This document shows, piece after piece, positions 14,258 to 40,598 of a DNA stretch of 42,533 nucleotides. The stretch is taken from the IMG/VR virus record IMGVR_UViG_3300010286_000001; one strand, written 5' to 3'. Under the pieces are notes generated by a model, which saw only the letters and a list, made by a program, of their open reading frames with translations, ran no database searches and was not told the origin of the DNA. How positions within the stretch are numbered: position 1 is the stretch's first letter; every line of letters begins with the position of its first letter. The position numbers and the translations under genes were made by a program. The stretch comes from a virus.

Positions 14258-14268
14258 AGGTGAGAAAT

Positions 14269-15498
14269 ATGACCACCTATATAAAACCGACTAAAATACA
14301 AATTTACGTCAACTCCGGGCGCAAGACAATGGCGCAGGTCAAGGCTGAAACAGGCTGTACGCATATAATCAACGGCGGCTATTTTAACATGAGCACATTT
14401 GAAGCGGTTTGTGTGCTGATAGCGGATGGCAAAACCTATGCTTACGAATGGAACGGTCGAGGGTATTGTTTCGACACCATGCCGCCTGTCTTGCGGTGGA
14501 GCACCAGGGAAGATAAGAATTTTATCTACGGCGTTCGTTTAGTGGAAAACGGACAAGCCGTCGTTCCGCTTGACTACAATGCCGCATGGGGCGGGGCGAA
14601 ACGTAAGACGGCGATGGGCGTGATGCCGGACGGTAGGATATGGCTTTACTGTTCCGACGACCTCACAACGCCCGAACAGTTACAGCAGATTGCTCTTGCT
14701 TCGGGGGTAGACAGCGCAATCATGCTCGATGGCGGCGGCTCGACACAGGGCGATTTCAACGGGCAGACCGTAACGAGCGACAGGATTGTGCATAATTTCA
14801 TCTGCTTCTGGGCGGAGGAAGATAGCAAGAGCGGTGACGACATTGAAATCAGACAGTCATTCCTTACGAATAACGATTGCTACAAAGAAGGCAAAACCAT
14901 AACGCCTAAAGGAATAATGGTACATTCTACGGGTGCGAACAATCCGAGCCTAAGCCGATTCCTGCCCGGCGATGAATTAATTGGCTACAATAAGTACAAC
15001 AACCACTGGAATCAACCCGGATTGAGCGTATGCGTCCACGCCCTTATCGGCAAAGACAAAAATGGAAACGTAAGGATATACCAAACCTTACCGTGGAATA
15101 TGCGAGGATGGCACGCTGGCGGTTCTGCCAATGACACGCACATCGGCTTTGAAATCTGCGAGGACGGACTAACTGACCCTGTATATTTCAATGCTGTCTA
15201 CAATGCCGCAGTTAACCTGTGCGTGCATCTTTGCAAGACGCAGGGGATTAGCCCCGACAACATAGTTTGTCACTCCGAGGGCTACAAACTCGGTATAGCG
15301 TCCAATCATGCGGATGTAATGCATTGGTTTCCGAAGCATGGTAAGACAATGGACGATTTCCGCGCCGACGTAAGGGACAAGCTATCGGCACAGACCGCAC
15401 CCACCTCCCTTACGCAGGAGCAGTTCAATGAAATGTTCGACATAGCCATGAAAGAATGGCTCTCTAAAAACTCCTTCAGACTGGAGGTTATCAAATGA
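14269..15498 (+). CDS. Two-domain endolysin: phosphodiester-glycosidase (NAGPA/DUF2233)-like N-domain plus Amidase_2/PGRP-type N-acetylmuramoyl-L-alanine amidase
   Basis: N-domain motifs IINGGYFN and AIMLDGGGSTQ. C-domain motifs IMVHSTGANNPS and GWHAGGSANDTHIGFEICED. The ORF track gives GTG 14260, but ATG 14269 has the better RBS spacing. Confidence 0.85.
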   Translation: MTTYIKPTKIQIYVNSGRKTMAQVKAETGCTHIINGGYFNMSTFEAVCVLIADGKTYAYEWNGRGYCFDTMPPVLRWSTREDKNFIYGVRLVENGQAVVPLDYNAAWGGAKRKTAMGVMPDGRIWLYCSDDLTTPEQLQQIALASGVDSAIMLDGGGSTQGDFNGQTVTSDRIVHNFICFWAEEDSKSGDDIEIRQSFLTNNDCYKEGKTITPKGIMVHSTGANNPSLSRFLPGDELIGYNKYNNHWNQPGLSVCVHALIGKDKNGNVRIYQTLPWNMRGWHAGGSANDTHIGFEICEDGLTDPVYFNAVYNAAVNLCVHLCKTQGISPDNIVCHSEGYKLGIASNHADVMHWFPKHGKTMDDFRADVRDKLSAQTAPTSLTQEQFNEMFDIAMKEWLSKNSFRLEVIK

Positions 15499-15932
15499 CG
15501 GAACCGGCGACCACGAAAAACGCAATATTAGCGGTGCTGGCTGCAATCGGCAGTTTCATCGCAAATCAATTGGGAGGGTGGGACGCGGCTTTGATAGTGT
15601 TAATCTGCCTGATGGGTATAGATTATGTGACTGGCATTATTCTTGCAGCCGTGTTCAAAGCCTCTCCAAAATCGGAAAGCGGAAGGCTATCCTCGCATGA
15701 AAGCTTTAAAGGGCTTGTGCGGAAGTGTTTAGTATTAGTGCTGGTATGGGTCGCCGCCATGCTCGACAAGGCCACAGGCGCAGCGTACATACGGACAGCG
15801 GTGGTGCTGTTTTATATTGCCAACGAAGCGTTAAGTGTATTGGAAAACACAGCCGCTATGGGTGTACCATATCCTAAGTTTATAAAAACGATGCTTGAAG
15901 CGGTCAAGGAAAAAGCCGACGAGGGTAAATAA
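15495..15932 (+). CDS. Holin (TcdE / phage_holin_4_1-like)
   Basis: 145 aa with multiple TM segments; DYVTGIILA and YIANEALSVLENTAAMGVPYP motifs; ATGA overlap with the endolysin stop. Confidence 0.8.
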   Translation: MTEPATTKNAILAVLAAIGSFIANQLGGWDAALIVLICLMGIDYVTGIILAAVFKASPKSESGRLSSHESFKGLVRKCLVLVLVWVAAMLDKATGAAYIRTAVVLFYIANEALSVLENTAAMGVPYPKFIKTMLEAVKEKADEGK

Positions 15933-15938
15933 GATTAA

Positions 15939-15968
15939 GCCGGGGGATTAATTTCCTCCGGCTTTTTT
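15939..15968 (+). terminator. Rho-independent terminator ending the late operon
   Basis: gccggggga-ttaatt-tcctccggc hairpin followed by tttttt. Confidence 0.6.
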
Positions 15969-15978
15969 GCTTCTAAGA

Positions 15979-16413
15979 TTATAAATTGTTCACGAGCTCG
16001 TCAATGATTGCTGAAATCGACTTTCCCGTCTCTGATTTCATTTTTTCCAGCTTTGCCTTAGTCGAAGCCAGGATAGTTAGATTTAATGGAACTTTATCGT
16101 CGCTTGCCTCCTCCGGCTCTCCGAACTCTGCGATGTACTCCTCGGCGGTGAGATGCTCTTCCGCCCACTCGCGGGCCGCTGCCGGAGTCAGGGGCTCGAT
16201 GTGTTCGCCTCCGGACCATTCGTTGTTACCAACGGACTTGGCGTATTTTGTCATTGGTCCGCCCTCGCCGTGGAGGAAGTATTTGCCCGCCTTTGTACGG
16301 TAGAGGCTCTCTTCAAAGTGGCTGAAATCGCGCCAGGAGCCGCCGTTGGAGTATGTGCCTATGAGTCGTGCCGTCTCGGTGTTGTAGAGTGCGCCGTTAA
16401 TGACTTTTTTCAT
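15979..16413 (-). CDS. Hypothetical protein with a C-terminal ribbon-helix-helix-like segment (second gene of the moron pair)
   Basis: 144 aa; RBS aaggagg; C-terminal LNLTILASTKAKLEKMKSETGKSISAIIDELV resembles a CopG/RHH beta-alpha-alpha unit. Confidence 0.6.
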   Translation of the reverse strand: MKKVINGALYNTETARLIGTYSNGGSWRDFSHFEESLYRTKAGKYFLHGEGGPMTKYAKSVGNNEWSGGEHIEPLTPAAAREWAEEHLTAEEYIAEFGEPEEASDDKVPLNLTILASTKAKLEKMKSETGKSISAIIDELVNNL

Positions 16414-16427
16414 CTTTGCTCCTCCTT

Positions 16428-17003
16428 TTAATTATTTTTCAGTATCGCGTTCGCGGCGTCAACCATTTCTTTTGTGATGATTCCCGGGACAAATCCAAAG
16501 CCACCCTCGTTGTTGATATCGTTGTATCTTTTCTTCCAAGCTTCGGCCTGAGCTTCGGTCATGAGGGAGCCGTCCCTGTTGCGGACGGTAGTCTCGGCGG
16601 CCTTGAGGACCTTCTCAGCGTATGCTATCTTCTGTGCCTTTTCTTCGGCGGCCCTAGCAGCTTCAGCTTCTTTTGCCTCCTCGGACTTTCCAGCTTCGAT
16701 TACTTCGCTCAAGAACTTTCCGATTATCTCAGCGCGGTCCTCGCGGAATGCGATTTTTTCAATACCCCAGATTCGCTTAAGACCGTTGCCAATGTCGATG
16801 ATTTTCCAGAAAGCAATATTCCAGCTGCTGTCGACTTTTTTGCCGTCGACGTAGACTTCGAGCATTGCTTCGACCTTTTCCTTCTTACCGACGTTTACCT
16901 TCCAACCGTCGGCGTCGACAATGTCATCAACCATTGTAATCTTGCATTCTGTTCTAAGCTCGATTTCGTTTCCTTTCGCTCCGGTCCATTTCAGTGTCTT
17001 CAT
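16428..17003 (-). CDS. Hypothetical protein (first gene of the moron pair); start moved to ATG 17003
   Basis: MKTLKWTGAKG... is preceded by aaaggggaaaacgaag. The ORF-track start at 17114 lies upstream of the predicted promoter, so it is unlikely. Confidence 0.6.
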   Translation of the reverse strand: MKTLKWTGAKGNEIELRTECKITMVDDIVDADGWKVNVGKKEKVEAMLEVYVDGKKVDSSWNIAFWKIIDIGNGLKRIWGIEKIAFREDRAEIIGKFLSEVIEAGKSEEAKEAEAARAAEEKAQKIAYAEKVLKAAETTVRNRDGSLMTEAQAEAWKKRYNDINNEGGFGFVPGIITKEMVDAANAILKNN

Positions 17004-17036
17004 CTTCGTTTTCCCCTTTCCCTTATCTTCGTGTTC

Positions 17037-17065
17037 ATTATAACATAGACTACGCGCGATGTCAA
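17037..17065 (-). promoter_or_regulatory. Perfect consensus sigma-70/sigma-A promoter TTGACA-17-TATAAT driving 17003..15979
   Basis: The reverse complement reads TTGACAtcgcgcgtagtctatgtTATAAT. Confidence 0.7.
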
Positions 17066-17148
17066 TAGGAAAATTAAATATTTTTGAAAATATTTTTAGA
17101 TTTTCTATGGGCATAAAGATAGCCGGAGGAATAGTCCTCCGGCTTTTT

Positions 17149-17171
17149 TACCGCCAATTTTACCGCCAATT
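17149..17171. repeat. Two tandem TACCGCCAATT boxes (candidate integrase arm-type sites, left of the core)
   Basis: taccgccaatt at 17149-17159 and 17161-17171. The same 11-mer pair recurs at 17447-17468. Confidence 0.6.
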
Positions 17172-17296
17172 TGTTTGGTGTTTTATGGCTAACTCTGTAT
17201 ACTACTGTACTCCTGCGCACAAACAGAATCCTTGATATATCAATGGTTTCAGGCGTTATTTGTCCATCATCGTATAGCTATGTTTACAAATATTTG

Positions 17297-17357
17297 CTAG
17301 ATTCAGGTTCTAGTGTGCAATACGCACGTGCGGGTTCAAGTCCCGCCTCGCGCACCA
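17297..17357 (+). other. attP core: 3' two-thirds of a tRNA-Leu(CAG) gene (anticodon arm, long variable arm, T-arm, 3' acceptor strand, CCA). It is not a complete tRNA.
   Basis: ctaga-ttCAGgt-tctag anticodon arm, gtgc-aatac-gcac variable arm, gcggg-ttcaagt-cccgc T-arm, ctcgcgc-a-cca. No matching 5' acceptor strand (gcgcgag) or D-arm lies upstream. Confidence 0.75.
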
Positions 17358-17359
17358 AC

Positions 17360-17407
17360 AAAAAGTACCGATTTTAGGCCAAAACAGCTTAAATTCGGTA
17401 CTTTTTT
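17360..17407. terminator. Bidirectional terminator-like hairpin after the tRNA fragment and after int
   Basis: aaaaagtaccga ... tcggtactttttt; an 11-12-bp stem flanked by an A-run and a T-run. Confidence 0.6.
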
Positions 17408-17446
17408 ATTGTTTTGCTTTATTCTATTTTACTTCGCAAAATCCTA

Positions 17447-17468
17447 TACCGCCAATTTACCGCCAATC
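17447..17468. repeat. Two tandem TACCGCCAAT(T/C) boxes (candidate arm-type sites, right of the core)
   Basis: taccgccaatt at 17447-17457 and taccgccaatc at 17458-17468, abutting the int stop codon. Confidence 0.6.
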
Positions 17469-18552
17469 AATACTCCAGCAGTTTTATCTTCTCTTTTAGG
17501 CCGTCTATATCGACGTGCGTGTAAATCTGTGTTGTAGATATATTTTTATGACCGAGCAACAATTGTACGCTGCGTAAATCTGCACCGCCTTTTAACAAGT
17601 ATGAAGCAAATGAATGCCTGCATTTGTGGGAGGTCTTGCGCTCTACCTCTTTCTTTTCTTTATTTGGATCCGCTGATTGTTCTAAGAATTTATTCAAGTC
17701 CTTGAAAAACTTATCGTAGCGATACCTAAAGGTGCTTAACGTCATGCGCTTGCCCGATTCATCGCTAATAACAAAATCGCCTTTGCGAGGTATGCTATTA
17801 AGCAGGTTCTTTAAATCATCACTTATTGGTATTATTCGCTCTGCTTTGCCTTTTGTTGTCTCCGATATTCTCTCGCCCTTCTCTGTGCGCTGCACGGCGC
17901 TGTGAACGCGAATAATTGAGTTGGGTATATCTATGTCCTCCCAGCGTAACGCAAGCGCCTCGCCGCGTCGCAGCCCTGTATAGAACAGTAATTTTATAAC
18001 GTAGCTAAATGGGTGCTCAAAGTTTAATATTTCCTTAATGGTTTCCGGCTTGAATATCTCAACCTCTTTTTGCGCAGGCTTTTTGAGCTTGATATTTTCG
18101 GCAACATTTTTCCTGCAATAACCGTTTTCAACCGCACTGCGCAACATCGCAGACAAGATAAAACGGACTTTCTTTTTTCGACTGAAAGAATAGTCGCTCA
18201 AGGAATTAATAACAGCCTGTATGTCAATCGGCTTTAACTGGTCTAGCTGCTTGTCGCCAATAATCGGAATAATGTTTTTCTCGATGATTACCTTATATTC
18301 GTAATACGTCCCCCATGCTACGGCCGGGGGCTTTTTATATGTGTTGAGCCAATAAAGCGCCCATGCTGAGGTTTGTTTGCGCTTTATTGCTTCTTCTTTA
18401 CCCCTTTTAACCCACTCGTCATATTTAGCCTTCGCCTCTTTAGGGGTTTTGCCATAAAATGAACGCCGCCCAGTTTCGTCGCGCTTTGAATATTCAATTA
18501 AGCCGCTTTTATGAACGCGATAACAACCGTCCCCGTAAGTGCGCTTTTTCAT
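17467..18552 (-). CDS. int: Tyrosine integrase
   Basis: 361 aa; [16 protein letters not shown] and [39 protein letters not shown] contain the R..H-x-x-R..Y catalytic signature. Confidence 0.9.
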
Positions 18553-18764
18553 CTGGCCAACTCCCTTTCCGCTTCAGCAATCGGGCGGTCGAACTCGAAA
18601 TCGTTGTTTCGAATATGTTCTAGTTCGTGTTCAAGGGTTTTGCGCTGCATCTCGTATGACAGATTGACGTTAATATAGACATTGTAGTCGCCGTTATGGT
18701 CCAAGAGCGTTTGCCCATATACAAACGGCGGCAAAGGGATATATCTAATAATAACGTCGTCCAT
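18549..18764 (-). CDS. Minimal ImmA/IrrE-like metallopeptidase (HEXXH)
   Basis: 71 aa; [25 protein letters not shown] matches the ImmA core; sits directly downstream of the XRE repressor and overlaps the int start. Confidence 0.6.
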
Positions 18765-18767
18765 CGC

Positions 18768-19142
18768 TCATTCCTCCCCGCTACCCCTCAACGCTTTGAT
18801 TATTTTTTGATACTGCCTAAGCTCGTCGGGAGTCGCTTTTCTGGATAGTTTAAACAGCGCCCTAAGCTCCGGATTATCTTTGAAGTCTTGCAATATAGCC
18901 TCTAATTCATCATCCTCCTCCGCTTTAGCGGGGGATTTTTTTATTTCTCCGGACATTAATTCTGCAACGGAAATTCCAAAATAATCTGCGATTTGCTTTT
19001 TCGTTCTATTCGCCGGCTCCCCGCCATTTTTCCAGTTTGTATACGCGCTTTTGCTTATTCCTAAATCAGTCAAAACTTTTGTCGGCGCAACCCCAAACTC
19101 TTCGCATATTTTTAAATAACTGTCAATAAACACAAATATCAC
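18768..19142 (-). CDS. XRE-family (cI-like / ImmR-like) repressor
   Basis: HTH LTDLGISKSAYTNWKNGGEPANRTKKQIADYFGISVAELM; divergent from the early operon. The start is ambiguous (GTG 19142 or GTG 19133). Confidence 0.8.
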   Translation of the reverse strand: MIFVFIDSYLKICEEFGVAPTKVLTDLGISKSAYTNWKNGGEPANRTKKQIADYFGISVAELMSGEIKKSPAKAEEDDELEAILQDFKDNPELRALFKLSRKATPDELRQYQKIIKALRGSGEE

Positions 19143-19192
19143 CTTACTTTTTAGTAATTAGACACAAATCGACAAAATGTTCATAAATGTAC

Positions 19193-19221
19193 TTGACAGA
19201 ACACGACACTTGTACTACAAT
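19193..19221 (+). promoter_or_regulatory. Early rightward promoter TTGACA-17-TACAAT
   Basis: TTGACAgaacacgacacttgtacTACAAT, surrounded by repeated TGTAC(T/A) and AAATGTTC motifs (candidate operators). Confidence 0.6.
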
Positions 19222-19391
19222 GTACTCAACAGGACAAAACACAACAAAATAACCGCCCGATAAAAATACTATATCGGGAAATAGTAATACTATTCTGAAC
19301 TTATGGCGTTTTTGATAGTATCACAAATGTTCTGTTTTGTCTACTATTGTCTTAAAATTTGTACACTTGCACAAAGAAGGGAGGTGATAAT

Positions 19392-19556
19392 TTGGAATAT
19401 TTAACCATTAAGCAGGCGGCCGAAAAGCTCCAGGTAAGCACCAAGACTATCACGCGCAGGATTAAGGACGGTTCCATTCCCTGCTACAAGCTCGGATTCA
19501 GAACTATCAGAATACGCGACGTGGACCTTCAAAATTACATAAACAGCAAAAAGTAA
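19392..19556 (+). CDS. Excisionase-family / Cro-position HTH DNA-binding protein
   Basis: TTG 19392 lies 6 nt after gaagggaggtg. MEYLTIKQAAEKLQVSTKTITRRIKDGSIPCYKLG is a typical MerR/Xis-type HTH. Confidence 0.65.
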   Translation: MEYLTIKQAAEKLQVSTKTITRRIKDGSIPCYKLGFRTIRIRDVDLQNYINSKK

Positions 19557-19571
19557 AGGACGGGGTTTTAA

Positions 19572-19997
19572 TTGAGAAGCGGAAAGTATTATCGCGGAAT
19601 CAAAGTCAATGGCCGCAAGATTGATTATCACCGCTATCTCATGGAGCAAAAACTCGGCAGACCGTTAAGCCGCTATGAGGTTGTTCACCACAAGGACGGC
19701 AATAAGCAAAACAACAGCATCGACAATCTTGAATTAAAGACTTTACCAGAGCACTCCAGGGAACACATGACGAGCCGGAAAATGAAGGCTGAGACGAAAG
19801 CGAGGATGAGCGCATCACGCAAGGGAAAGCCGAATTATGCCTGCCGCAAACTCAATGCTTCACAGCTCGCCTTTGCCCAAAAGATGCTTGACAATGGAAT
19901 GACATACCGAACTGTAGCACGACATTTTGGTGTAGATCATACAACAATTATGCGATACTGCCGCAAACCAAATCAGCAAGAGCGGGAAACAGCGTGA
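19572..19997 (+). CDS. HNH endonuclease with a C-terminal HTH
   Basis: VVHHKDGNKQNNSIDNLELKTLPEHSREH (HNH_3 pattern), then MTYRTVARHFGVDHTTIMRY. Confidence 0.8.
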   Translation: MRSGKYYRGIKVNGRKIDYHRYLMEQKLGRPLSRYEVVHHKDGNKQNNSIDNLELKTLPEHSREHMTSRKMKAETKARMSASRKGKPNYACRKLNASQLAFAQKMLDNGMTYRTVARHFGVDHTTIMRYCRKPNQQERETA

Positions 19998-30846: not shown

Positions 30847-32484
30847 GTGTGGTGTTTAGTACGCTTGAATGAAGCTATACAAAAGAAGCTTGACGAGATA
30901 CAAGACTATATAGCTCTTGGCGACTGGAAAGTTGACGATCACGGAGTAACGCTCGAAAAAGAAGTGATAAAAGGCGGCAAAGTCGTAGCGACAACAACCG
31001 AAACGGCTTCACCTATCCCGATTCTACCAACCGCCCTGCTTGAGAACATAGACAGCAATATTGAAAAACTTGAACTATCTTTCTTTAAGCACAATCGTTG
31101 GCAATCACTCATAACCGAGCGCTCCGTAACAGCTAATCGTAACGCGATAATCAAACTAGCCGACAAAGGGCTTGAGGTCAATTCAGACAATGCTGGTCTG
31201 CTCGTCAAGTACATAGCCGATGTTGTTGCGTGGAGCCTTCCCTACTTGCCACATAAGCCCGCAAAGTCCGTAATGGGCTGGGTTGACGATGAGTTTATGC
31301 CGTACACAGACAAAATCGTATTCGACGGTGACGACCAGTTTAAACATCTTTACAAATCAATAACGAGCAAAGGTACCTTGCAAGAGTGGATAGACTTTAT
31401 CGCTCCGCTTCGTAAGAACCTCGAATTGCGATTGTGTATGGCAGCGTCGTTCGCCTCCCCCCTAATCGAATTAATCGGTGAAAATCCGTTCGTGTTTCAC
31501 TTATGGGGCGGAACCGGCGCAGGAAAGACAATCGCACTCATGGTCGCAATGTCAATTTGGGGCAATCCGGCTATGGGCGCAATGACCCGTACAATGAATA
31601 TGACGGCTAACTCCATGTTGGCAACAGCGGCTTTTCTACGCAACCTACCATTCGCCGGAGACGAGCTTCAAACAATTAAATCACGCTGGACAAACTATGA
31701 CAACTTAATTATGTGCATCACGGAAGGCATTGACCGAGGCCGAATGTCCTACGATAAAGTCAACGAGATGAAAGCCTGGAAATGTAGCTTTCTCTTTTCA
31801 GGCGAGGAACCGTGCATCAAAGCAGCTTCTGGAGGTGGGGCCAAGAACCGCGTTATTGAGGTCGAATGCAAAGATAAGCTCGTGCAAAACGGCAACCTGG
31901 TGGCGAACTTCGTGCGGACGCACTATGGCTGCGCCGGAGAGCCATACATAGAACAAGTAAAGAAGGAGGATGTAGTCGAGCAATACAATCAACTTTTCGC
32001 AGAAATTCTTTCCAACACCGACACCACCGAGAAGCAAGCCGGTTCAATGGCAATCATGCTTGCAGCAGACCGCATAGCGTCCGAACTGTTCTGGCCCGCC
32101 GAGCGCCCCATTACTGTAAGCGACGTAACGCAGTACCTTGCAAGCGCCTCCGAAGTGGACGTAACCGAGCGAGCATATCAGTACATCTGTGGCGTAATCG
32201 CGGAAAATCAATCCAATTTTTACGATACATCGAAACAATTATGGGGTAGCATCGAGGGCGAATATGTCTACATAAACAAAAACGTGTTGTGTCGAATCAT
32301 GGAAGATGCGGGCTTCGACTTCGACGCCGTAAAAGCGAAATGGCACGAAAAAGGCTACTTGGAACGTAACAATCAGGGCAAGTACCATTATCACAAGTCA
32401 ATCGGGGGCATAAAAGCCATGTATGTGAAACTTAGACAAAGCGGTGCCGATGATTTTGTGCAAAACGACGAACTTCCGCTATAA
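30847..32484 (+). CDS. DUF927-type (Cch/SF3-like) replicative helicase
   Basis: Walker A HLWGGTGAGKTIAL, then WGNP....T.N..., Walker B LPFAGDELQ; followed immediately by iterons. Confidence 0.75.
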   Translation: MWCLVRLNEAIQKKLDEIQDYIALGDWKVDDHGVTLEKEVIKGGKVVATTTETASPIPILPTALLENIDSNIEKLELSFFKHNRWQSLITERSVTANRNAIIKLADKGLEVNSDNAGLLVKYIADVVAWSLPYLPHKPAKSVMGWVDDEFMPYTDKIVFDGDDQFKHLYKSITSKGTLQEWIDFIAPLRKNLELRLCMAASFASPLIELIGENPFVFHLWGGTGAGKTIALMVAMSIWGNPAMGAMTRTMNMTANSMLATAAFLRNLPFAGDELQTIKSRWTNYDNLIMCITEGIDRGRMSYDKVNEMKAWKCSFLFSGEEPCIKAASGGGAKNRVIEVECKDKLVQNGNLVANFVRTHYGCAGEPYIEQVKKEDVVEQYNQLFAEILSNTDTTEKQAGSMAIMLAADRIASELFWPAERPITVSDVTQYLASASEVDVTERAYQYICGVIAENQSNFYDTSKQLWGSIEGEYVYINKNVLCRIMEDAGFDFDAVKAKWHEKGYLERNNQGKYHYHKSIGGIKAMYVKLRQSGADDFVQNDELPL

Positions 32485-38939: not shown

Positions 38940-40598
38940 ATGGATATAGAGCAGACGTTAAAGGCGATACGAGCCTTCATAGACAAAAAACCGGAGTTTG
39001 AAGCGTATCAGGACTACTTCGATATGCTTCGGGCGCTGGGTGAGACTGACCGTGCGAAGGCTGATGAGCACAATTTGTGGCTCCGAAGGGAGACTACGCG
39101 GCGCTGCAAAGAGGCCACAGACCCGAACGTGGTGACGGACTTCTACAATTTGACCTACAAGACATACCTGTACGGTGCGCAGACCTCGTTTGACGACTAC
39201 ATGGTAGCTGTCGAATGGGATAGGGAGCCAAAGGCGAAGTTTTGGGTTCCGCGCCGGAAGGTGCTGGAGGGGCAGCACAAAATAGCCAGTAAGATACAGG
39301 CGTTTTTGGACGATGAAAATGCGCTGTTTTTGGCGTTCTCGATGCCTCCTGGCACCGGAAAGACGACGCTGATTAAGTTTTTGCTGTCGTACATCTACGG
39401 GCAGTATCCGAACAGCGCGAACATGTATGTCAGCTACGCAGACGCGATGGTGAAGATGGTTTACGACGGCGTGCAATCCATCTTGACTGATAATTTCGAG
39501 TACAAGTTCAAGGATGTATTCCCCGAAGTGCCTGCTCCTGTATGCTCTGCGGAGTATTACACTATTTCAGCGCGTAGGAAAGGCGATTTCCCGACGTTGG
39601 GGCTTATTTCCCTGGGCGGTTCGGTTACTGGCCGTACCCGTGCGAACAAACTGCTGATTACTGACGACCTTGTGAAGAACAAGGAGGTCGCCCGTAGCCC
39701 CGAACGGCTGAATACGCTGTTTGAGGACTACAAGGCGACGATTACGACTCGTACAATCGGCGACAATGTGAAGCAGATTATGCTTGGCACGATTTGGTCG
39801 GCACATGACCCGATTTCGCGCATGAAGAGCGAACACAATGGAGACCCGCGGTACATCTTCATCGCGCTGCCTGTTCGTGACGAGGACGGGCATAGCAATT
39901 TCAATTACGACCACCCGGACAGATATACGGATGAGCGCATCGCTGAGCTTGAGGCTACACTTGATCCAGTTGATTTCTCGTGCCTATATATGCAGAAAGG
40001 CATTGAAAAAGAGGGCTTGGCATTCCCGGCAGATGCCTTGGATTACTATGAAGGCGAGCTGCCGGATGGAGAGCCTGACAATATCATTTTCTATGCTGAC
40101 GTGGCATTCGGCGGAGGCGATAGCTTTTCAATGCCGATTGCCTACATTTACGGAAAAGACGTGTACATACACGATGTAATATTCGACCGTGGCGACAAAA
40201 CAGTTACTATGCCGCGAGTAGTTGAGAAAATCCTGAAGCACAAGATCAGGATTGGTCAGTTTGAGGCGAACAATGGCGGTGATTTCTATTGCGAGGAGGT
40301 AAACCGCATTCTCCGCGAAAAGCACAATTACTCGATGAACCTCGGTAGCAAGAAGGCTCCGTCGAATATGAGCAAATTGTCAAGGATTGAACAGCACGCC
40401 CCGGCAATTCGGCGATTCCACTTCAGAAGCAGGAATTGCAGGGATGCTGACTACAAGAAATTCATGGACGAGCTGACCTCGTTCAGTTTCACAGCGAAGA
40501 ACCTGCATGACGACGCGGCAGACTCCCTCGCGGGGCTTGCGGACAAACTCTATCATGGCACATTATCTTGGGTTGAAATCGGCAAACGCCCGTGGTGA
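38940..40598 (+). CDS. terL: Terminase large subunit
   Basis: Walker A SMPPGTGKTT, Walker B LLITDDLV, C-terminal nuclease motifs ADVAFGGGDSFS and HDDAADSL. Confidence 0.9.
   Translation: MDIEQTLKAIRAFIDKKPEFEAYQDYFDMLRALGETDRAKADEHNLWLRRETTRRCKEATDPNVVTDFYNLTYKTYLYGAQTSFDDYMVAVEWDREPKAKFWVPRRKVLEGQHKIASKIQAFLDDENALFLAFSMPPGTGKTTLIKFLLSYIYGQYPNSANMYVSYADAMVKMVYDGVQSILTDNFEYKFKDVFPEVPAPVCSAEYYTISARRKGDFPTLGLISLGGSVTGRTRANKLLITDDLVKNKEVARSPERLNTLFEDYKATITTRTIGDNVKQIMLGTIWSAHDPISRMKSEHNGDPRYIFIALPVRDEDGHSNFNYDHPDRYTDERIAELEATLDPVDFSCLYMQKGIEKEGLAFPADALDYYEGELPDGEPDNIIFYADVAFGGGDSFSMPIAYIYGKDVYIHDVIFDRGDKTVTMPRVVEKILKHKIRIGQFEANNGGDFYCEEVNRILREKHNYSMNLGSKKAPSNMSKLSRIEQHAPAIRRFHFRSRNCRDADYKKFMDELTSFSFTAKNLHDDAADSLAGLADKLYHGTLSWVEIGKRPW

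Follow-up and report, generated by a model that had tools for sequence, protein, structure and literature searches.

We analysed a viral DNA stretch of 42,533 nucleotides (IMG/VR record IMGVR_UViG_3300010286_000001), referred to here at its full length as the window, and focused on a cassette of two minus-strand genes, A and B, at positions 15,937 to 17,144, beside the phage attachment site (attP). The original prediction had presented this pair as a candidate prophage defence, exclusion or toxin-antitoxin (TA) module. Our results indicate that the cassette is an accessory moron of known type, carrying two protein families so far without annotation. The reading that we favour, with slightly better than even confidence, is that of a self-contained, recombinationally mobile moron cassette in which A and B are shuffled independently, and not that of an obligate two-component system. 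We do not take the cassette as evidence of a new defence system.

The proposed layout runs, in the direction of transcription, from a hairpin through an UP-like tract and a consensus promoter to gene A, gene B and a second hairpin, all within a slot of variable content that separates the lysis genes from attP. The open reading frames (ORFs) and the neighbours identified with Pfam confirmed that this slot lies between the lysis genes and attP and that the cassette is on the strand opposite to the late genes. In the ORF list, gene A occupies 17003..16428 (minus strand; 576 nt, that is, 191 amino acids (aa) and the stop codon) and gene B 16413..15979 (minus strand; 144 aa). The ribosome-binding site of gene A is AAGGGGA, about 8 nt 5' of the start, and the 14-nt spacer between the genes (16414..16427, minus strand) holds an AAGGAGG ribosome-binding site 7 nt before the ATG of gene B. 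The earlier description of two minus-strand ORFs 14 nt apart, each with a ribosome-binding site, was therefore correct, except that the 192 aa given for gene A had counted the stop. A longer ORF of 228 aa, starting at 17114, was rejected for gene A: its start lies 5' of the promoter, and the homologues have 185-195 aa.

Gene A is preceded by a sigma-70/sigma-A promoter at 17065..17037 (minus strand), in which TTGACA is followed after 17 nt by TATAAT. The promoter called in the original prediction was recovered at 12/12 consensus positions, with an extended -10 element (TG-n-TATAAT) in addition. In a promoter scan it was the sole 12/12 site within 15000-19500. Because the total number of promoter-like sites in this interval was not above that in shuffled sequences (6 vs 7.7), we rely on this one exact match and on the finding that it is near-100% conserved in a related phage. 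That relative, locus L012, has one substitution in the promoter, within the spacer, and the promoter is conserved along with the genes both in L012 and in a second relative, L229. Upstream, at about -40 to -67 (17071..17097, minus strand), lie UP-element-like A/T-rich tracts, AAAAATATTTT C AAAAATATTTAATTTT. These include AAAAATATTTT / AAAAATATTT at 17097-17076, directly upstream of the promoter, and two AAAAATATTT(T) tracts, and the A/T-rich region differs from that of L012 by one substitution. We take the tracts to fit the classical UP-element consensus. The unit is closed on both sides by hairpins found in a terminator scan. The left one (15937..15964) is palindromic and G+C-rich, with an 11-bp stem followed by a T-run, and is common to the convergent holin gene (plus strand) and gene B (minus strand). 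The right one (17121..17144), also palindromic and detected on both strands, is related to the left one (repeat families D3/I3) and insulates the cassette from transcription on the attP/int side.

We then compared the window with L012 and L229. Window positions 14258-15968, comprising the endolysin gene, the holin gene and the hairpin, matched L012 in forward orientation with 84% identity, and positions 17145-15937 matched it in reverse orientation with 92% identity. Relative to the lysis genes, L012 thus carries the hairpin-promoter-A-B-hairpin unit in the opposite orientation (window 15937-17144 vs L012 4267-5474). Near-identical palindromic hairpins of the type AAGCCGGAGGATTAATTTCCTCCGGCTT bracket the cassette in both phages; the homology flips orientation exactly at the 15937-15964 hairpin and ends at the 17121-17144 hairpin. 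Because the unit is inverted between them, the flanking hairpins mark recombination boundaries besides being transcription stops. Homology to L012 resumes at window position 19374 (L012 5613-5784 matches window 19374-19545), and the cassette there abuts early genes. The block of attP, integrase, ImmA-like and repressor genes (17146-19373) is absent at the corresponding place in L012, which suggests that this lysogeny module was gained or lost as one unit. Since the same cassette is present in L012 without an integrase/repressor module at that place, it is not tied to lysogeny. L229 has the window-like order of int, attP, promoter, A and B. As the cassette is inverted, without an integrase module at that place, in a related phage, the promoter-A-B unit behaves as a mobile moron. 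A programmed, invertase-driven inversion was set aside, with no invertase found in the regions examined and with the hairpins themselves being palindromes; palindromic hairpins could support occasional illegitimate or homologous exchange.

The claim that the two genes form one system was not borne out. Adjacent A and B genes were confined to three loci with A identities of 95% or more, namely the window, L012 and L229, indicating that the pair is not co-conserved, an outcome that the original prediction had itself named as refuting it. It was absent from all of the loci first recovered from A homologues (11/11). Among 28 non-redundant A-family contexts, B was present only in the L012 type, and about 27 were without B; about 110 more distant B loci were without A. 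In L098, a B with 84% aa identity stands alone, opposite the terminase genes, together with a 44-nt remnant of the 3' end of A. In L228 (73%) and L230-232 (74%), B is the last gene beside the integrase or the lysis module, and the genes upstream of it (119 aa, and 73 + 56 + 131 aa, respectively) are unrelated to A. B is likewise the last gene in this slot in L013/L014 and in Lactobacillus phage LFP01. A co-directional gene within 80 nt upstream was found at 70 of the 112 B loci with usable gene calls, and these 70 partners fell into 54 clusters. A Pfam scan of 46 cluster representatives revealed no known toxin, only DUF3846, one GNAT, DUF7376 and an AP2/zinc-finger protein. Because the upstream partners of B vary, we regard B as the recurrent terminal gene of the slot and A as one of many alternatives. 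On this view, A and B belong to separate, unrelated families of accessory genes found on mobile elements, with A as exchangeable upstream cargo and B as the recurrent last gene.

Gene B is itself a recombination mosaic. The window and L012 share 95-100% nucleotide identity in the promoter, in A and in the tail of B, and 60-82% only over 16155-16394 (B aa ~7-86). The comparison with L229 showed 95-100% identity up to B aa ~86 and about 52% over the tail and the terminator (15935-16154). L098 matched the window (96.5%) only up to B aa ~105, and its tail is different. As identity drops separately in these near-identical cassettes, the N-terminal domain and the C-terminal tail have been exchanged independently.

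The N-terminal domain of protein B (aa 1 to ~100, nt 16413-16114, minus strand) is beta-rich and contains 19 invariant columns in the family alignment. The AlphaFold2 (AF2) model of B (pLDDT 87.5) has eight short strands and two helices in aa 1-97. An acidic linker leads to a C-terminal tail resembling a ribbon-helix-helix (RHH) domain (aa ~107-144, nt 16095-15982, minus strand), with predicted helices at aa 116-129 and 133-142. The RHH-like tail of the original prediction was supported by three concordant matches, all weak and sub-threshold: Pfam RHH_1 (E=0.019; 15.3 bits, cut-off 20.5), a PHROG Arc-like family (E=0.046) and, for the B family profile against PDB, CopG as the best match (E=0.066). 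PDB sequence searches, run with single sequences and with profiles, yielded nothing for B other than CopG in the tail. Several B homologues pass PF01402 in precomputed tables. Scans of B against NCBIfam and PADLOC gave no informative match, those against Pfam and PHROGs gave nothing beyond the weak RHH match, and Foldseek with the B model found no match below E=0.1 in PDB. A resemblance of the N-terminal domain to Pur-alpha (Whirly-like; probability up to 0.44, TM 0.46) was too weak to use. With a maximum 19-residue Kyte-Doolittle hydropathy of 0.16, B is acidic and soluble.

The B family comprises at least 943 homologue clusters at 90% identity, with 134 matches in species-representative genomes and more than 530 in IMG/VR. 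The homologues are mostly in metagenome-assembled genomes of Clostridia and other Bacillota, and other phyla are represented too. They occur in phages and viruses (Lactobacillus phages LFP01 and JNU_P7, Paracoccus phage Shpa, an inovirus and a virus contig attributed to Methanomicrobiales) and on plasmids of Selenomonas, Vagococcus, Lactococcus, Halorubrum and Methylobacterium. The inovirus gene (L226 1262-1648) lies between Zot and the replication initiator of the 5.5-kb bajarodino virus 48 (Inoviridae), showing how widely the domain travels among mobile elements. Tandem pairs of B-family genes were seen at L058 3599-4429 and L172 3561-4423. Some family members consist of the N-terminal domain alone (~102 aa).

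The AF2 model of protein A (pLDDT 92.5) shows an N-terminal beta domain with a long beta-hairpin (aa 1-87) and two long helices (aa 88-136), and a C-terminal helical module spans aa ~108-191 (nt 16682-16431, minus strand). The model and the family alignment agree with the beta-rich N-terminal domain, helix and C-terminal motif originally described. The signature of the A family is a loop, YNDINNEGGFGFVPGIIT, between the last two helices (aa 160-177; 16473..16526, minus strand). This motif is the most conserved part of the family: N161, N165, G167, G168, G170 and P173 are invariant in the alignment, as is E166 in a fuller listing. A word-indexed search recovered 15 relatives of A, and an exhaustive profile search recovered 570 representatives at E<=1e-3 and 83 at E<=1e-30. 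The C-terminal NEGGxGYxP module also stands alone or follows other N-termini; a profile search with this module alone returned only short stand-alone proteins. Among the long members scanned, one is fused to a YodL-like domain, a domain characteristic of the polyvalent (conflict) proteins that conjugative elements of Firmicutes encode (PMC5512222). Another member has a marginal HipA N-terminal fusion.

Pfam, PHROGs, PADLOC and NCBIfam scans of protein A gave no informative match. Foldseek with the A model found no match below E=0.1 in PDB and only uncharacterised phage proteins in BFVD, and tblastn found nothing in GenBank phages. A PDB sequence match to MJ0754 (E=0.012) was discarded, being attributed to the Glu/Lys/Ala-rich helices. 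Protein A contains no His and one Cys, and long helices make up half of it. It is acidic and soluble, with a maximum 19-residue Kyte-Doolittle hydropathy of 0.96. Protein A is best read as a soluble cytoplasmic effector, with the conserved NEGGxGYxP loop as its probable functional core.

In the mechanism that we propose, the N-terminal domain of B, which has no recognisable fold relative, would most likely bind a protein or a ligand; it is highly conserved and also exists without the RHH. The exchangeable RHH tail should dimerise and bind DNA. B would then most likely be a transcriptional regulator that exerts feedback on the cassette promoter and possibly acts on other operators too. A near-consensus promoter with an UP-like tract would be hard to leave unregulated, making the RHH of B the obvious candidate for negative feedback. 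Candidate operators are direct repeats GAA(C/A)ACGAAGAT (17036-17025 and 17013-17002, minus strand; 12 nt twice, 23 nt apart; repeat family D7), which extend from immediately behind the -10 box as far as the start codon of gene A, and the palindromic AAAATATTTT tracts upstream; the candidate elements can be summarised as GAAMACGAAGAT repeats and AAAATATTTT palindromes. Autoregulation by B, like constitutive expression of the cassette and a benefit to host or phage, is what we infer from this arrangement.

Several observations weigh against this reading. The candidate operators are only partly conserved in L012, where the proximal repeat copy has three differences despite an identical RHH, so that the support for an operator is weak; no shared operator or promoter motif was found upstream of B-ending operons with similar RHH tails, for which only 8 loci were usable. 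The RHH assignment comes from three sub-threshold profile matches and predicted helices, and the AF2 monomer of B has no strand in the RHH tail. Absence of the strand would be expected if the sheet forms only on dimerisation, and it is no proof of such a fold. Of 20 non-redundant contexts, 8 have, immediately downstream of the A-family gene, a gene for a protein with a DNA-binding domain: three XRE helix-turn-helix (HTH) proteins, one HTH_17/HTH_59 and four RHH proteins, including TacA/HicB-like and RelB-like ones. Two further downstream neighbours have RHH-like tails by eye. Among other neighbours within three genes, about 6 of 58 carry such domains (Fisher p=0.006), a control counted by eye from a family-count table, with crude gene calls and a small sample. 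Without the RelB-like protein of L211, whose own PemK toxin is, by inference, encoded by the next gene, p was 0.013. The enrichment hints at a functional pairing of A with a regulator, which independent cargo does not fully explain. Finally, at L017 3001-3863, on the Methylobacterium fujisawaense plasmid NZ_CP155001.1, a B homologue of 30% identity is followed after 8 nt by the gene for a PemK/MazF toxin. This homologue, an N-terminal domain with an RHH, is annotated as a HicB-family antitoxin, and its Pfam HicB (PF05534) match falls in the RHH part. It is the only case seen of the B family in the classical antitoxin position.

We regard a toxin-first type II TA or abortive-infection (Abi) module, the likeliest of the alternatives, as unlikely. 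A would be a new toxin and B its antitoxin and autorepressor, whose N-terminal domain neutralises A and whose RHH represses the promoter, and the antitoxin would have been swapped repeatedly, as in hyperpromiscuous TA networks. As in type II TA systems, the two small genes form a compact operon, 14 nt apart and served by a single promoter and a single terminator, and B has a DNA-binding-like tail, although the RHH matches are weak. The enrichment of RHH/HTH genes downstream of A-family genes (8/20 vs ~6/58) and the Methylobacterium plasmid homologue preceding a PemK/MazF toxin point in the same direction, and promiscuous choice of partners has been described in genuine TA systems (PMC8832971, PMC10440598). 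However, co-inheritance and likeness to a toxin family, two further marks of type II TA systems, were not found: the pair is conserved only among near-identical phages, and protein A resembles no toxin family by sequence or fold in Pfam, PHROGs, PADLOC, NCBIfam, PDB or BFVD. The composition of A (no His, one Cys, half long helices) also argues against a toxin. The partners of B are more than 50 unrelated non-toxin proteins, most of them small and acidic, and B often has no partner. Several downstream partners in the A family are RHH proteins of 47-72 aa, with little room for a neutralising domain, and in L211 a PemK toxin of its own probably lies next to the RelB-like protein.

A broader version, which we consider rather improbable, would make the A family with its interchangeable RHH/HTH partners an unrecognised toxin-first TA-like or Abi family of phages, and the N-terminal domain of B a new promiscuous sensor or neutraliser with an exchangeable DNA-binding tail. 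If this were true, the allele-like replacement of the N-terminal domain between near-identical cassettes would reflect an arms race.

It is similarly doubtful that A and B are immediate-early host-takeover or anti-defence genes, not expressed in the lysogen, with a promoter that fires on DNA entry and products that act on host factors or immunity. The L012 cassette lies between the holin gene and the early genes, with no integrase or repressor at this place, as this explanation would have it. B homologues occur in arrays of small acidic genes without assigned function, in viral early regions and in conjugative elements, and these arrays adjoin DUF3846, ParB-like and VirD4-like genes (the latter two identified by eye). 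The fusion of an A-family member to a YodL-like domain fits as well, but it is a single example. Neither protein has homology to known anti-defence proteins, and morons expressed in the lysogen typically show what is seen here: a place beside attR, an outward orientation and terminators that insulate the unit.

Two further explanations are very unlikely. P22 immI combines an Arc/Mnt repressor with an antirepressor. In a secondary immunity region of this kind, A would be an antirepressor-like modulator of an ImmR/ImmA switch and B an Arc/Mnt-like RHH repressor; the late region has a strong promoter and an RHH regulator at its far end, B gives a weak match to an Arc-like repressor in PHROGs, and the phage has an XRE repressor and an M78/ImmA-like fragment, all of which is consistent with it, whereas the lack of an Ant, KilA-C, Bro or other antirepressor domain in A (Pfam, PHROGs), the effector-then-RHH order, which is the reverse of arc-ant, and the occurrence of the cassette without a lysogeny module in L012 argue against it. 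A two-component prophage anti-phage defence or exclusion system would suit a slot typical of prophage defence genes, the strong predicted expression and the uncharacterised state of both families, but A and B are not co-conserved, PADLOC-DB v2 returned 0 families for either protein at E<=1, in keeping with the earlier statement that neither belongs to a known defence family, and no enzymatic or membrane features were found (Foldseek against PDB, hydropathy), the absence of a hydrophobic segment from both proteins excluding a membrane or lipoprotein superinfection-exclusion protein of the Ltp, Sie2009 or SieA type.

The independently shuffled moron cassette thus remains the reading that we prefer, and it can be placed beside known systems. 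Like phage morons of the HK97/lambda type and those in the lysin-attR slot of phages of Gram-positive bacteria, the cassette has its own promoter, its own terminators and an independent orientation, and it lies between conserved modules. Its presence and arrangement vary among relatives: position and orientation differ between close ones, and the same slot is found with varied content. Promoter, terminators and variable placement are the traits that define a phage moron. In contrast to known morons, it carries genes that match none known for conversion, exclusion or defence. In a limited literature search, we did not find a description of bracketing by two copies of one palindromic hairpin with inversion between them.

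The last ~38 residues of B match RHH profiles of the CopG/Arc/MetJ repressors, with CopG as the best PDB sequence match, and B likely belongs to the RHH superfamily, judging from its sequence. In contrast to these repressors, the matches lie below curated thresholds, the RHH of B is an appendage to a 100-aa domain of no known fold, and some family members have no RHH altogether. HicB antitoxins share the domain order of B, an N-terminal partner-binding domain followed by a C-terminal RHH, and the distant B homologue that precedes a MazF-family toxin matches PF05534. However, B itself has no Pfam HicB match, and no HicB structure was among its Foldseek matches. No HicA-like ORF or other known toxin was found next to B, either among the window ORFs or in the Pfam scan of its partners. 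With the hyperpromiscuous antitoxin domains of the Panacea/NetFlax networks (PMC8832971, PMC10440598), B shares an N-terminal domain that adjoins dozens of unrelated partners, and the interchangeable RHH/HTH proteins after A-family genes are a further likeness. The difference is that the partners of B are not recognisable toxins and that B is often alone.

The surroundings of the cassette are those of a temperate tailed phage, probably with a Clostridia-type host. Because the window is the whole 42,533-nt contig, it represents the genome of a free phage, as opposed to a prophage integrated in a host. On the lysis side lie the endolysin gene (NAGPA and Amidase_2; 14260-15498) and the holin gene (Phage_holin_4_1; 15495-15932, plus strand), which is convergent with gene B; both were identified with Pfam. 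The base composition of the cassette showed no anomaly relative to the lysis genes, and an Rfam scan of the cassette and attP found nothing relevant. A megablast search with 25 kb of the window against GenBank phages returned only a 72% endolysin fragment of an Oscillospiraceae phage.

The placement of attP beside the cassette in the original prediction was borne out by a tRNA-Leu fragment, arm-type repeats and a Pfam integrase. The attP region (17147..17467, plus strand) lies outside the cassette. It contains 12-mer repeats of the type TTTACCGCCAAT, two at 17147-17170 and two at 17445-17467, as tandem pairs that flank the tRNA fragment; one of the four copies is TATACCGCCAAT. Their layout is that of integrase arm-type sites. 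The 61-nt 3' fragment of a class II tRNA-Leu (17297-17357, plus strand; anticodon CAG) spans the anticodon stem-loop, the long variable arm, the T arm, the acceptor strand and CCA, and predicts integration into a tRNA-Leu gene. ARAGORN found no complete tRNA at attP, as expected for an attP fragment. A hairpin after the tRNA fragment (17360-17406) could serve as a terminator for both the rebuilt tRNA gene and int. The tyrosine integrase is encoded at 17467-18552 (minus strand; Pfam), and the same module encodes an XRE repressor (Pfam). Between them, a 71-aa ORF with an HEXXH motif (18549-18764, minus strand) has a match confined to the N-terminal half of Peptidase_M78/IrrE (ImmA-like); its product may be an anti-repressor protease in truncated or minimal form.

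Further into the genome, the early region starts with a homing-endonuclease-like gene (HNH_3, NUMOD3 and HTH_38; 19572-19997, plus strand), and a second near-consensus promoter (19193-19221; 11/12) lies a few hundred bases upstream of it. A protein with DUF927 and a Cch-type HTH, resembling a primase/helicase-like replication protein, is encoded at 30847-32484 (plus strand), and a terminase-like gene is present at 38940-40598.

Taken as a whole, the cassette is a clearly bounded instance of something common: accessory genes in the variable slot of a phage. Three by-products may be of use. The A family, with about 570 representatives, has a confidently predicted fold without a solved relative and a sharply conserved loop. 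B stands for a very large unannotated family with a clean two-module architecture and no Pfam, PHROG or NCBIfam model, and this family merits being formally defined. Lastly, that A-family genes are so often followed by DNA-binding partners offers a lead towards a new regulatory or TA-like pairing.

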